Source: a virus (Duplodnaviria > Heunggongvirae > Uroviricota > Caudoviricetes). Taken from it: a DNA stretch of 64,000 nucleotides. Location of the stretch: the IMG/VR virus record IMGVR_UViG_2537561979_000003; one strand, written 5' to 3'. The translations under genes and the position numbers were made by a program. Each line of letters opens with the position of its first letter. Within the stretch, counting starts at the first letter, position 1. The notes below the pieces were generated by a model. It was not told the DNA's origin and did not search any database. It saw nothing but the letters and a program-made list of their open reading frames with translations. This document shows, piece after piece, positions 25,596 to 45,410 of this stretch.

Positions 25596-25668
25596 CTTCT
25601 TGATTGATTGGATGCGGAATACAAACCCGCTCTTTTGTGCAGCCTGGCTCCTTGCCAGGCTTTTTTTA
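25596..25668 (+). ncRNA. candidate small RNA (promoter-like element to intrinsic terminator)
   Basis: TATACT -10 at 25589-25594 with TTCACT 15 bp upstream; terminator agcctggc-tcctt-gccaggct plus T7 at 25641-25668; the 5' end carries TGATTGATTGG. Confidence 0.25.
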
Positions 25669-25977
25669 TTTCATCATGGAAGCTGTTAACGCTTTGGATC
25701 TTGCTGAACTGATTGAAAGGGCATTGTTTACCTTACCCAGGAGTTCGCCAAATTCCACCATCACTCTAGTAAGCCCGCGCCGCGCTTCCTCCTCCGTTGC
25801 ATTCATCACAAAATGTTCAGCACTCCGCATGCTTTTAACGGGGAACGCAACAGATATCGAGTCGATATCAGGCATCCTATCGCTCAACTTTACGGTGACA
25901 ATGACAGATGGTGACTGAATTTGAGAGCTTACAGACAGCACCACATATTTTCCGTCTATTTTGAAATCCTTCCGCAT
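25666..25977 (-). CDS. hypothetical protein between ref and cre (cra/hxr region)
   Basis: 103-aa ORF with an operator-like site upstream. Confidence 0.4.
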   Translation of the reverse strand: MRKDFKIDGKYVVLSVSSQIQSPSVIVTVKLSDRMPDIDSISVAFPVKSMRSAEHFVMNATEEEARRGLTRVMVEFGELLGKVNNALSISSARSKALTASMMK

Positions 25978-25993
25978 GTGTCATCATAAATAT

Positions 25994-26010
25994 CAAATAA
26001 TTAGAGCAAT
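25994..26010 (-). promoter_or_regulatory. C1 operator-like site
   Basis: Minus strand ATTGCTCTAATTATTTG. Confidence 0.55.
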
Positions 26011-26027
26011 CAGTTGCAAATAAACGG

Positions 26028-27059
26028 CTAATCGCCATCTTCCAGCAGGCGCACCATTGCCCCTGTTTCACTATCCAGGTTACGGATATAGTTCATGACA
26101 ATATTTACATTGGTCCAGCCACCAGCTTGCATGATCTCCGGTATTGAAACTCCAGCGCGGGCCATATCTCGCGCGGCTCCGACACGGGCACTGTGTCCAG
26201 ACCAGGCCAGGTATCTCTGACCAGAGTCATCCTTAGCGCCGTAAATCAATCGATGAGTTGCTTCAAAAATCCCTTCCAGGGCGCGAGTTGATAGCTGGCT
26301 GGTGGCAGATGGCGCGGCAACACCATTTTTTCTGACCCGGCAAAACAGGTAGTTATTCGGATCATCAGCCACACCAGAGACAGAAATCCATCGCTCGACC
26401 AGTTTAGTTACCCCCAGGCTAAGTGCCTTCTCTACACCTGCGGTGCTAACCAGTGTTTTCGTTCTGCCAATATGGATTAACATTCTCCCACCGTCAGTAC
26501 GTGAGATATCTTTAACCCTGATCCTGGCAATTTCGGCTATACGTAACAGGGTGTTATAAGCAATCCCCAGAAATGCCAGATTCCGTATATCCTGGCAGCG
26601 ATCGCTATTTTCCATGAGTGAACGAACCTGGTCGAAATCAGTGCGTTCGAACGCCAATGCCTGTTTTGCACGTTCACCGGCATCAACGTTTTCTTTTCGA
26701 ATCCGCCGCATGACCAGTGAAACAGCATTGCTGTCACTTGGTCGTGGCAGCCCGGACCGACGATGAAGCATGTTTAGCTGGCCCAAATGTTGCTGGATAG
26801 TTTTTACTGCCAGACCGCGCGCCTGAAGATATAGAAGATAATCGCGAACATCTTCAGGTTCTGCGGGAAACCACTTCCGGTTATTCAACTTGCACCATGC
26901 CGCCCACGACCGGCAAACGGACAGAAGCATTTTCCAGGTATGCTCAGAAAACGCCTGGCGATCCCTGAACATGTCCATCAGGTTCTTGCGAACCTCATCA
27001 CTCGTTGCATCGACCGGTAATGCAGGCAAATTTTGGTGTACGGTCAGTAAATTGGACAT
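26028..27059 (-). CDS. cre: Cre site-specific tyrosine recombinase, 343 aa
   Basis: MSNLLTVHQNLPALPVDATSDEVRKNLMDMFRDRQAFSEHTWKMLLSVCRSWAAWCKLNNRKWFPAEPEDVRDYLLYLQARGLAVKTIQQHLGQLNMLHRRSGLPRPSDSNAVSLVMRRIRKENVDAGERAK... ending MVRLLEDGD matches Cre. Confidence 0.98.
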   Translation of the reverse strand: MSNLLTVHQNLPALPVDATSDEVRKNLMDMFRDRQAFSEHTWKMLLSVCRSWAAWCKLNNRKWFPAEPEDVRDYLLYLQARGLAVKTIQQHLGQLNMLHRRSGLPRPSDSNAVSLVMRRIRKENVDAGERAKQALAFERTDFDQVRSLMENSDRCQDIRNLAFLGIAYNTLLRIAEIARIRVKDISRTDGGRMLIHIGRTKTLVSTAGVEKALSLGVTKLVERWISVSGVADDPNNYLFCRVRKNGVAAPSATSQLSTRALEGIFEATHRLIYGAKDDSGQRYLAWSGHSARVGAARDMARAGVSIPEIMQAGGWTNVNIVMNYIRNLDSETGAMVRLLEDGD

Positions 27060-27066
27060 TTAACAC

Positions 27067-27288
27067 TCAGATAATAGTTTTAAGTAAAGTGTACAGGATT
27101 GGCTCTGCCTTTACCTGTTTATGGTTCTCGTCATAGAAACGCCAGCGACCGCGCGTGCGTTCTATTTTCTCTTCACCGCGCGATAATGACAGTTGGCAAC
27201 TATCACGATCAAACCCTTTTGCCCGCCAGTAACCACGGTTTTTCTCAAGCTCAAGATGAGTGGACACTTTAGCAGCTGAATATCCCAT
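27067..27288 (-). CDS. small ORF in the cre upstream region, 73 aa
   Basis: Strong SD GAGGTG preceded by CCAATCAATCA; ends 8 nt before the cre ATG. Confidence 0.35.
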   Translation of the reverse strand: MGYSAAKVSTHLELEKNRGYWRAKGFDRDSCQLSLSRGEEKIERTRGRWRFYDENHKQVKAEPILYTLLKTII

Positions 27289-43374: not shown

Positions 43375-43383
43375 GCATCCCCC

Positions 43384-43470
43384 TTACCCATGTGCGACGA
43401 TGCCGCCAAAAGTGATAGAGAACAGCCAGAAATAGATCGCGGCCATAATGATTTTGAATGCCGTGTTCAT
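43384..43470 (-). CDS. candidate 28-codon membrane peptide
   Basis: MNTAFKIIMAAIYFWLFSITFGGIVAHG; SD CAGGAG preceded by CCAATCAATCA. Confidence 0.3.
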   Translation of the reverse strand: MNTAFKIIMAAIYFWLFSITFGGIVAHG

Positions 43471-43552
43471 ATTTTCAGCTCCTGTGATTGATTGGATACA
43501 TGCCGCGCCTTGCGGCATGTTTTTATTTTCACTTTCCCTGTTTTAAAAATCA

Positions 43553-43569
43553 AGATTTATTAGAGCAAT
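43553..43569 (-). promoter_or_regulatory. C1 operator-like site
   Basis: Minus strand ATTGCTCTAATAAATCT. Confidence 0.55.
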
Positions 43570-44075
43570 TACTGTTGATGGAGAAGCGCGTTTTCATACT
43601 CCCTGACCATTAACGTAAGTACGCCGTGACTCCTGAAAACACGCGCCACTTCAATCTTATCTTCCAGCGCGAACGCGATTTTACTTAGACCAATTTTCTT
43701 AAGGAGAGCAATCTTTGCTGGGCCGTCATTTCTGTCATCGGTGGCAGGACGCATAGATAGCAAAGGCTCAGCCCCGTTTGTTACGTGCTTACGCAACCAG
43801 GCTCGTGTTTTATCCCTGGCTATCTCACAGCGCCCGGTTACAAACCAGACCGTGTAAACGTTAAATAACTGGCGCACCATATCAATAACTGGAGTGATGG
43901 GAGCATCAGTGTCACAGGCGAGATTAAACTCGTTCCAGTCCTTTGTTAATGCACCTTTACCTGGTGGCGGAAGCAAATGCAGTCTGTCTTCAGTTGCCTC
44001 TGATATTGTTCCATCAATATCAACTATGACGATATACGGACGTTCCTGGTGTGCGTGTTTATTGAAAATACTCAA
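43569..44075 (-). CDS. HAD-superfamily phosphatase-like protein
   Basis: N-terminal DxDGT-type motif VIVDIDGTI. Confidence 0.5.
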   Translation of the reverse strand: MSIFNKHAHQERPYIVIVDIDGTISEATEDRLHLLPPPGKGALTKDWNEFNLACDTDAPITPVIDMVRQLFNVYTVWFVTGRCEIARDKTRAWLRKHVTNGAEPLLSMRPATDDRNDGPAKIALLKKIGLSKIAFALEDKIEVARVFRSHGVLTLMVREYENALLHQQ

Positions 44076-44147
44076 ATGCCCTCCTCATTGGACGAAAAAA
44101 ATGCTGGTGGGCGCACTCCACCAGCATTAAAAGTGACACTGTAACTG

Positions 44148-45410
44148 TCAGCGAACGTAAATAGTGCCGCCGTTCTCTTTTTCCCATGCATCGCTACGTG
44201 CATAGCAAACATCGAGAAGTCTTCTTGCCGCTGTTTCCTCTAAACCCAATTCGACAACCAACTGCTCATGACGGCGGGTAACCACATCAAACAGGGTATG
44301 CAGCCCTTTAGCTGCCAGATCATCAATAAATTCCGGTTCGAACGGCAGCTCTGCATCTGCCAACATAACCTCTTGCGCCCACTCGACACGGCGGACCAGT
44401 TCCGGGCGGCGGCTTTCCATCTCTTTACAGATCAATTCATGGAAGAACTCTACCCAACCTTCCGGCTGGAACTCGCGGAAAATGGCCAGCGGCTGGAAGT
44501 TTGGCATCAACCATTCGTTGATTCGGATATCAATGGCATAGCCCATGTCGCAGCAGAACTGATAAGCAAAGTCCAGCTTAGAAACGATATAAGGACGCTC
44601 GTTATTGAACTCTTTAGGCGATGAGATCCCATAAGCCAGGAGGCGCGGGAAGAAGGAGATTTGCCCTAACGTCGGATGAAGTTTGCTTGCAGGGAAACGG
44701 CGCTCAGTAATGCCATACATTTCCTTCTTGAGCGTCGCAAATTTGGCATTCTCATTAACCAGCGCGGTAACCTCTGCTTTTTTATTAGCAAATGCCACGC
44801 GCGCCTCGCTTGCATCTTTAATAGTTTTTTTGAGCTGTTGGTTAAGGTCGGCGACCTGCTTACGCAGTTCCTGTCGCTCGCTTTTAGCTTTGTTATAGCG
44901 TTTCTCAAGGTTAAAAGGATCAAGTTTCATGATCTCTTTATATTGAGATTTTAGCGTTGAAATCTGTGAGTTCCGCAGTTCAACCATCGCGGTCATTTCA
45001 TTGAGTTTTGTTTCCAGCTCAATGCTTATACGTTCGGCATTATCAGCACGCTGGTTGGCGTCATGCGTCGCATCGTCGATCGCGTCCTGTTGCTGGCGTT
45101 TCAAATGTTCAATTTCCAGCTGAAGCTCTTCAATTTCTTTACCCTTCAGACCGAGATCCAACTGCATATTTTCAGCTGCATCTACCAGGGAGTTATGGCT
45201 ATCAGCTTCTGCGTTATAAACATCAATAAGCTGTGCGTGAAGCATCTCCGCTGACTGAACCGCATTATCAAAAAAACGTGCTGTGAGGTCATCACAACTA
45301 ACGCGGCGTTGCGCGGCCCGGATGTTCTGGATAATGGCCGGGATACCGGCATTCAGGACATCAGGGATACATACATTTTCGATTGATTGGTTTTGTGCTG
45401 AAGTGCTCAT
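44148..45410 (-). CDS. hypothetical coiled-coil protein, 420 aa
   Basis: Long heptad-rich central region. Confidence 0.45.
   Translation of the reverse strand: MSTSAQNQSIENVCIPDVLNAGIPAIIQNIRAAQRRVSCDDLTARFFDNAVQSAEMLHAQLIDVYNAEADSHNSLVDAAENMQLDLGLKGKEIEELQLEIEHLKRQQQDAIDDATHDANQRADNAERISIELETKLNEMTAMVELRNSQISTLKSQYKEIMKLDPFNLEKRYNKAKSERQELRKQVADLNQQLKKTIKDASEARVAFANKKAEVTALVNENAKFATLKKEMYGITERRFPASKLHPTLGQISFFPRLLAYGISSPKEFNNERPYIVSKLDFAYQFCCDMGYAIDIRINEWLMPNFQPLAIFREFQPEGWVEFFHELICKEMESRRPELVRRVEWAQEVMLADAELPFEPEFIDDLAAKGLHTLFDVVTRRHEQLVVELGLEETAARRLLDVCYARSDAWEKENGGTIYVR

Follow-up and report, generated by a model that had tools for sequence, protein, structure and literature searches.

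What is the role of a short word that recurs in the 64,000 nucleotides of IMG/VR virus record IMGVR_UViG_2537561979_000003, referred to here as the window? An earlier note on this DNA had described an 11-mer, TGATTGATTGG, placed just 5' of Shine-Dalgarno (SD) sequences, and had proposed that it is a conserved translation-initiation module or a protein/RNA-binding site. The window belongs to the P1-like phage-plasmids and is closest to Salmonella phage SJ46 (98.4% identity), with ~95% identity to P1 itself; the gene contexts given here follow the annotations of P1 and SJ46. Since nearly all genes around the motif are encoded on the - strand, the mRNAs in this region read CCAATCAATCA. We consider it likely that the motif represents the pairing end of a P1-type small RNA gene of ~65 nucleotides (nt), along with matching mRNA sites that this RNA probably controls. 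What the sequence itself establishes is how the gene is built and that it is conserved, together with the complementarity and the way in which seed and targets have changed in step between lineages.

The motif copy at 25601-25611 lies in the spacer between c8 and ref. A consensus scan of the + strand identified a promoter (TTTTCA-17-TATACT, with TG before the -10 element) that ends at 25594, and 7 nt after the extended -10 element the sequence GATTGATTGG begins (25602-25611). The small RNA predicted to start here (Table 1) has the 5' end GAUUGAUUGG, which is the complement of the motif copy, followed by a hairpin (GCGG..CCGC), a U-rich linker, a terminator and a U-tail; the terminator scan placed the terminator at 25641-25661 of the + strand, with the T-run after it. 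In P1 (AF234172), the corresponding interval is complement 1828-1894. The predicted fold (-23.2 kcal/mol, z = -3.25) leaves the 5' seed unpaired, and the promoter is located ~32 bp from the C1 operator Oref, without overlap. The earlier note had concluded that the motif is not a promoter element, which is wrong for the 25601 copy, where a conserved extended -10 element is present on the other strand, upstream of the predicted 5' end of a transcript. No conserved open reading frame (ORF) was found in the small RNA, the short ORFs differing among the five lineages compared below. The analysis of positions 25540-25720 with Rfam 15 gave no family match at gathering scores, the best sub-threshold match being SorX (22.6 versus 46.6 bits required). 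The 2004 P1 annotation contains hundreds of regulatory features, of which none is in the c8-ref spacer, and nothing relevant on a P1 small RNA or on the motif strings was found in the searchable literature, older subscription papers being outside its reach.

Table 1. Positions in the window of the predicted small RNA gene, the motif copies and the sites matching its seed
Feature	Position	Strand	Characteristics
Predicted sigma-70 promoter	25566..25594	+	-35-like TTTTCA 25566-25571, 17-nt spacer, extended -10 TGcTATACT 25586-25594
Predicted small RNA of ~65 nt	25602..25668	+	c8-ref spacer, antisense to both flanking genes
Intrinsic terminator AGCCTGGCTCCTTGCCAGGCT and T-run reaching the c8 stop codon	25641..25668	+	Terminator scan
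Exact motif copies, TGATTGATTGG	25601-25611, 27299-27309, 43485-43495	+	Window motif search
Motif copies with one mismatch	45380-45390 (+), 33543-33553 (-), 54334-54344 (-)		Window motif search
Further copy of the 9-nt core CAATCAATC	13716-13724
Target site 1, CCAAUCAAUCA	27299..27309	-	cra-cre leader, -21..-12 from the cra AUG at 27288, 10 bp
Conserved cra-cre leader hairpin, GCGCTACG ... CGCGTAGCGC	27321..27379	-	Upstream of target site 1
Target site 2, UGUAUCCAAUCAAUC(A)	43485..43500	-	-30..-16 from the AUG at 43470, 2 nt 5' of SD GGAG
28-amino-acid hydrophobic membrane ORF, MNTAFKIIMAAIYFWLFSITFGGIVAHG	43384..43470	-	Heads the pmgT operon, good SD
Target site 3, CCAAUCAAUC(G)	45380..45390	-	Inside pmgS, nt +21..+30, codons 7-10 (N-Q-S-I), 10 bp
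Possible additional target, AUUCAAUCAAUC	13716..13727	-	Last pro codons, 12 pairs, 1 G-U
Not part of the system, TGATTGATTGC	33543..33553	-	Starts with the lpa stop codon, mRNA sense same as the small RNA
Not part of the system, GGATTGATTGG	54334..54344	-	Within coding sequence, sense same as the small RNA

The decisive evidence for the motif is comparative. Close P1 relatives (80 cra-centered loci, 722 plasmids) are uninformative because they are 95-100% identical, and the comparison was made with diverged lineages, namely a Pantoea element (Cre 65% identical), L180/L181 and L182 from IMG/VR (68-73% nucleotide identity) and Cronobacter (Cre 80%), with Cre identities of 64-81% over the four. 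The arrangement of TGnTATA(C/G)T, 6-7 nt, GATTG and a terminator is present in ~90 P1-like loci as well as in L181, L182, Pantoea and Cronobacter, and five lineages thus retain the predicted promoter and terminator of an independent transcription unit. The spacer separating the -10 element from the start is variable (CCTTCTT, CTTTCTT, CCCTTCC, CATTCGC or GACTTC), and it is this spacer that, read on the other strand, forms the supposed SD sequence AGAAGGAG. Purine-rich, SD-like runs follow the motif at three sites, of which two (27299 and 43485) also have a start codon. At the third, 25601, no start codon follows, and the run varies in close relatives and is replaced in other lineages, which argues against a fixed module of motif and SD. 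Further invariant elements in the c8-ref spacer alignment are TATA-CACA 7-8 nt after the motif, an A-run before the hairpin, and the hairpin itself, with compensatory changes. All five lineage variants are predicted to fold with a free 5' end, hairpin and terminator (z = -3.3 to -4.1), the sequences of hairpin 1 being different; RNAalifold revealed compensatory pairs in the terminator, and two stem pairs have changed on both sides across lineages. Within the small RNA, conservation is strongest in GAUUG(A/G)UUG, which is unpaired in the minimum free energy fold of all variants.

Three phage mRNAs carry sites complementary to this seed (target sites 1 to 3). The site in the cra-cre leader is located directly 5' of SD GAGGUG and 10 nt before the cra ATG, after the conserved leader hairpin, and is predicted to be unpaired; it is unchanged in 77 P1-like loci, is kept at the orthologous position in L181, L182 and Pantoea, and reads AUAACCAAUC in Cronobacter, where the seed has also changed. 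A stable stem is predicted for this hairpin, with stems that are invariant and a loop that varies across lineages. The second site, which can form 15 contiguous pairs with the small RNA (2 of them G-U), follows the C1 operator OpmgT and a hairpin, and the motif copy within it lies 14 nt before the ATG of a 28-amino-acid ORF. This ORF is unannotated in P1 (AF234172), is annotated with a longer N terminus in SJ46, and is kept, preceded by a leader hairpin of its own, in L181, Cronobacter and Pantoea. The third site, within pmgS, is kept in L181 (13 bp) and reads AACCAATCAccc in Cronobacter. In Pantoea it is in a different reading frame (AGC AAT CAA TCA versus AAC CAA TCA ATC in P1), and selection thus acts on the nucleotides and not on the protein. 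Among 80 translation-initiation regions in the window, the best duplexes were those of the small ORF (-22.4 kcal/mol) and cra (-17.8 kcal/mol; mean -9.5, standard deviation 2.7), and the target sites are unpaired in the predicted folds of the leaders. A possible additional site at the end of pro is shared by P1 (L004 20014-20022) and the window, and in P1 it is near the lydE start on the other strand. The alternative given in the earlier note, a protein/RNA-binding site, fits the copies at 27299 and 43485 and, in early coding sequence, 45380, for which pairing with a small RNA is the best reading.

In the loop of the cra-cre leader hairpin, part of the ribosome-binding region that follows downstream was seen to be repeated (GTGAAAAATTGG versus GGTGAAAAATGGG in P1), and the same was observed in the Pantoea element (L091 5560-5630; GCAATCAGGGGTA versus GCAATCAATCACAGGGGTA).

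Not all motif copies belong to this set. All copies listed in the earlier note are present, two of them with coordinates that were off by one (43486-43496 for 43485-43495, and 33544-33553 for 33543-33553), and the copy at 54334-54344 was absent from that list. The copies at 33543 and 54334 have the same sense on their mRNAs as the small RNA and therefore cannot be targets; they are probably due to chance. The 33543 copy is present in close P1 relatives only and is absent from the L180-182, Pantoea and D6 lineages. An RNA derived from the 3' untranslated region of lpa, with this copy as its seed, was rejected because the copy is not conserved outside these close relatives.

In alignments of the diverged cra leaders, c8-ref spacers and pap-pmgT spacers, CAATCAATC stands out as an invariant island; besides it, conservation is limited to hairpin stems, the start region and the C1 operator/promoter. 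The core is kept at four orthologous positions, the flanks having diverged or been replaced. The conservation at orthologous positions on which the earlier note had made its proposal depend was therefore found for these four copies in diverged lineages and not for the lpa copy. Where the seed has changed, the targets have changed with it. The Cronobacter seed is GAUUGGUUGU, and its contig has AACCAAUC(A) at all three orthologous sites (cra leader, small ORF and pmgS), with the second AATC unit lost; an extra site abuts the AUG of a ref-like gene (L189 13964-13972). The Pantoea seed is GAUUGAUUGU, with U at position 10, and A or G is found opposite it in all four targets on the same contig, which are associated with the first gene after a lox-like site, stbA, the small ORF and pmgS. 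The site before the stbA/ParM-like partition gene is at L179 8252-8261 / L194 2337-2346 (-). In lineages with G at seed position 10, the target has C or U there, and in L181 the RNA continues with GG-UUU and two targets with AAA-CC, extending the pairing to 13 bp. Over 15 seed-target pairs of 10 bp each (150 cells), 98% of the positions are paired, and positions 6 and 10 have changed on both sides. None of 500 shuffles reached the observed pairing or covariation, and shifted registers gave 11-57%. The extra sites specific to single lineages suggest that the regulon has been rewired between lineages. A blastn search of plasmids with the Pantoea leader gave nothing useful.

These comparisons bear on the alternative that a low-complexity (CAAT)n word recurs by chance and is shared by ancestry among near-identical P1 relatives. 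For a pre-specified 11-mer, 0.07 exact copies are expected and 3 were observed; the 0.03 copies given in the earlier note are likewise valid only for a pre-specified word and ignore the look-elsewhere effect. Dozens of 11-mers reach three copies in 64 kb, the window containing 83 canonical 11-mers with at least three copies versus 19-56 in composition-matched random 64-kb sequences. In the ~6.2 kb of non-coding sequence, at least three copies are reached only by C1-operator words and the motif 11-mer, and the simulated P value for one or more such non-coding triples is 0.04-0.10. The 9-mer core occurs 7 times versus ~1 expected, and order-3 to order-5 Markov models generate 7-22 comparable 9-mers by chance. 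Because so many 11-mers and 9-mers recur in random sequence, the counts in the window are no more than suggestive, and the fact that most P1-like sequences are 95-99% identical here, as well as the two copies that are probably fortuitous, is in keeping with this explanation. It does not account for a core that is invariant at four orthologous positions despite 65-73% nucleotide identity, nor for a seed and targets that change together, and we regard chance and shared ancestry as extremely unlikely to be the whole explanation. The 9- to 11-mers with the strongest over-representation in the window either contain Chi (GCTGGTGG, up to 18 copies) or belong to the C1 operator (ATTGCTCTAAT, 11 copies). 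Both kinds of word are established features of P1, and they dominate every count of repeats in the window.

Concerted change could also arise if a sequence-specific phage or host protein recognized the motif in DNA or mRNA, including the 25601 copy, and if a change in its specificity altered all copies. Each lineage has a single word, all copies change in parallel in Cronobacter, as a co-evolving protein would produce, and the tandem CAAT-CAAT form could suit a repeat-binding protein. However, every examined target is on the mRNA strand and is spaced relative to the SD sequence and not the promoter; the distance to the SD is kept across lineages, whereas that to the C1 operator/promoter varies. 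The differences between seed and target obey the rules of G-U wobble (C or U opposite G, A or G opposite U), and a protein site leaves unexplained two features of the opposite strand at 25601, the extended -10 element conserved at a fixed distance of 6-7 nt and the terminator. The analysis yielded no candidate protein, and neither Cra nor C8 has a Pfam family. A protein-binding site is thus unlikely.

The location of the copies next to SD sequences raises the alternative of a cis-acting, C/A-rich and unstructured translational enhancer or ribosome standby site between the 5' hairpin and the SD. C/A-rich elements upstream of the SD, such as the GcvB target elements, can enhance translation, and the cra and small-ORF copies, predicted to be unpaired, are indeed between a stable 5' hairpin and the SD. 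Such an element would need neither a 9-mer that is invariant across lineages nor coordinated substitutions, and the motif is not used by other genes of the 103-kb genome. Complementarity to rRNA does not exceed 6-7 nt (7 nt including G-U for 16S, 6 nt for 23S; 5S was also checked) and is not meaningful. Furthermore, the 25601 copy has no start codon, the 45380 copy is inside coding sequence, and another copy is at a stop codon in the opposite sense. Consequently, a fixed translation module as proposed in the earlier note is not supported, and we consider the enhancer, which is in essence that module, quite improbable.

A further possibility is that the sites are recognized by a small RNA of the host, OmrA, given that AUUGAUUGG in its conserved 5' region is complementary to CCAAUCAAU. 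The E. coli K-12 OmrA sequence has the 9-mer in its 5' pairing region, and OmrA/B act near SD sequences and start codons and in early coding regions (PMC12692685). When the OmrA 5' end is paired with the sites, the duplex energies (-13 to -19 kcal/mol) nevertheless stay within the window background (mean -13), and the conserved C at motif position 10 would not pair. The 5' end of OmrA is conserved in Enterobacterales. The Cronobacter targets follow the phage seed to AACCAAUC, which breaks the match to OmrA, and it is highly unlikely that the sites serve the host RNA.

The reading that we prefer remains a phage-encoded small RNA. The c8-ref spacer would encode a trans-acting RNA opposite the flanking genes, transcribed from its own extended -10 promoter, and the single-stranded 5' seed GAUUGAUUGG would pair with CCAAUCAAUC(A) on at least three phage mRNAs near their translation starts. 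The predicted sites are in the leader of the cra-cre operon, in the leader of the small ORF that heads the pmgT operon, and in codons 7-10 of pmgS. Pairing would probably involve Hfq, and its likeliest outcome would be lower translation and/or reduced mRNA stability through faster decay; both this direction of control and the time at which the RNA would be expressed are predictions. The small RNA would also be fully complementary to any transcript reading through from c8 to ref.

Several points weigh against this interpretation. The in-window statistics on their own are marginal and only suggestive, and the -35 element of the promoter is poor. The pairing is short, 8-10 bp at most sites, and the pmgS (+21..+30) and small-ORF (-30..-16) sites are at the edge of the region in which ribosomes are usually blocked. 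The covariation table is built on five seeds, so its rows are not independent, and the non-orthologous targets (Cronobacter ref, Pantoea stbA and the second L180 site) are a biased sample because they were found by complementarity. Covariation alone is no proof of RNA-RNA pairing, since the seed gene has the DNA word of the targets and the site of a co-evolving DNA- or RNA-binding protein would show the same concerted change. Finally, we infer the transcript, its 5' end, Hfq binding and the regulatory effect from DNA sequence.

Outside these lineages, the divergent P1-like phage D6 has no motif copy outside coding sequences and lacks this small RNA gene, both being absent together. A candidate of similar build is found in D6 (L086 19756-19810, -), with TGATATAGT, 7 nt, GATTGGATCGTGACTTGAAGCGTGATG and the terminator CCCCGGCCTGGCCGGGG with T6; its covariance model score is weak (15 bits). 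A Citrobacter P1-like contig (L191 160-215, -) matches the covariance model with 23 bits (E = 0.0016), and this candidate also has TGATATAGT 7 nt upstream and a terminator, with a different 5' end (UUCUCUGUAGG); 9 nt of it can pair at the SD of a ref-like gene (L191 15903), and the candidate may be related to the small RNA but diverged, with another seed. For the covariance model candidates in D6 and the Citrobacter lineage, whose seeds differ, the analysis gave no convincing targets. Just upstream of the small RNA promoter in the window, an Oref variant, ATTGCTCTAATTGATTG, is present at 25518-25534; its right half contains AATTGATTG, which is identical to the seed in 8 of 9 positions, and its + strand reads CAATCAATT. 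This may be a coincidence.

Other readings of the motif were tried and rejected. P1 late promoters, which depend on Lpa and consist of a -22 box and a -10 element, resemble the motif in being short conserved words that recur in P1 intergenic regions. They are defined by a 9-bp AAGTTACTT-like -22 box, usually 4 nt upstream of the -10 hexamer, which the motif does not match; the -22 boxes (AAGTTACTT / ATGTGACTT), including those annotated for LPpac and LPhot, are unrelated to it. As for a marker of module or mosaic junctions, the motif does not fall at the homology boundaries given in the P1 annotation (the hsd-flanking segments). Binding sites of IHF, DnaA and other known proteins did not fit by their consensus sequences. 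The Cra homologues in SSU5-like phages and in a Cronobacter plasmid are in an unrelated context. RNAduplex calculations with full-length small RNAs yielded long duplexes without meaning.

Among known systems, the predicted RNA is most readily compared with RybB, MicA and OmrA/OmrB, which are Hfq-dependent and have a 5'-terminal seed. It shares with them an own promoter, a length of 60-90 nt, an internal hairpin, a U-rich stretch, a terminator with a U-tail, and a conserved single-stranded 5' end that can pair with several mRNAs at or near ribosome-binding sites; nine nucleotides of its seed (AUUGAUUGG) also occur, unchanged, within the OmrA 5' region. The U-tail contains 6-9 T in the P1-type variants, and at least 7 T are typical of the tails of Hfq-binding small RNAs (PMC5558911). 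Unlike these RNAs, it would be encoded by a phage-plasmid, its identified targets are the phage's own genes, and it has no Rfam family. Its seed also differs in being a tandem tetranucleotide repeat, which makes alternative pairing registers possible, and its Hfq binding is only predicted.

There is also a likeness to c4 of the P1/P7 immI region (RF01695) and the CI RNA of satellite phage P4, which are small phage RNAs that pair with short repeated sites in phage mRNAs and block expression; RNA-based control is therefore already used by P1-type phages. The c4 RNA arises by processing of the operon transcript that also carries its target, and the sites on which it acts are confined to that transcript (icd-ant). 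The proposed RNA differs in having its own promoter and terminator, an unrelated sequence, and sites on at least three separate transcripts. Between c1 and pacB, the window contains a C4 antisense RNA (RF01695, 75 bits) at 30482-30569 and an IsrK-like RNA (RF01394, 59 bits) at 30614-30692, on the - strand. This pair adjoins an antirepressor-type gene and forms an additional module of the immunity type, which P1 lacks at this position. Small RNAs of temperate phages that act post-transcriptionally by base pairing include DicF (Qin), IsrK (Gifsy-1) and svsR (NC-SV) (PMC4825925, PMC12803456). Those that have been characterized act mainly on host genes or competing phages, whereas the conserved targets predicted here belong to the element itself, namely the leader of its recombinase operon and its morphogenesis genes.

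The kind of element described here is thus known, from 5'-seed small RNAs and from phage RNAs such as c4, and we found no description of the P1 member. On balance, the evidence favors the view that P1 and its phage-plasmid relatives encode an unrecognized trans-acting RNA, the tandem-repeat 5' seed of which co-evolves with a regulon of own mRNAs near ribosome-binding sites. That this regulon comprises the cra-cre recombinase operon and head-morphogenesis genes, along with ref or the stbA partition gene in some lineages, appears reasonably probable as well. Because the gene abuts an ORF provisionally called c8 ('establishment of lysogeny'), the small RNA may contribute to or even account for c8 function. 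In hfq-deleted cells infected with P1vir, pmgS and pap were over-induced and cra/cre/ref under-induced, with no such RNA named (bioRxiv 10.64898/2025.12.28.696737); these results are compatible with the small RNA model and not specific to it. P1 is widely used for Cre-lox recombination and generalized transduction and as a model phage-plasmid. If our reading is correct, a post-transcriptional layer would be added to its C1/Lpa transcriptional circuit, and there would be a concrete reason for the recently reported Hfq dependence of P1 development. The natural seed variants and their matching targets would then provide a tidy example of the co-evolution of a small RNA and its targets on a mobile element.

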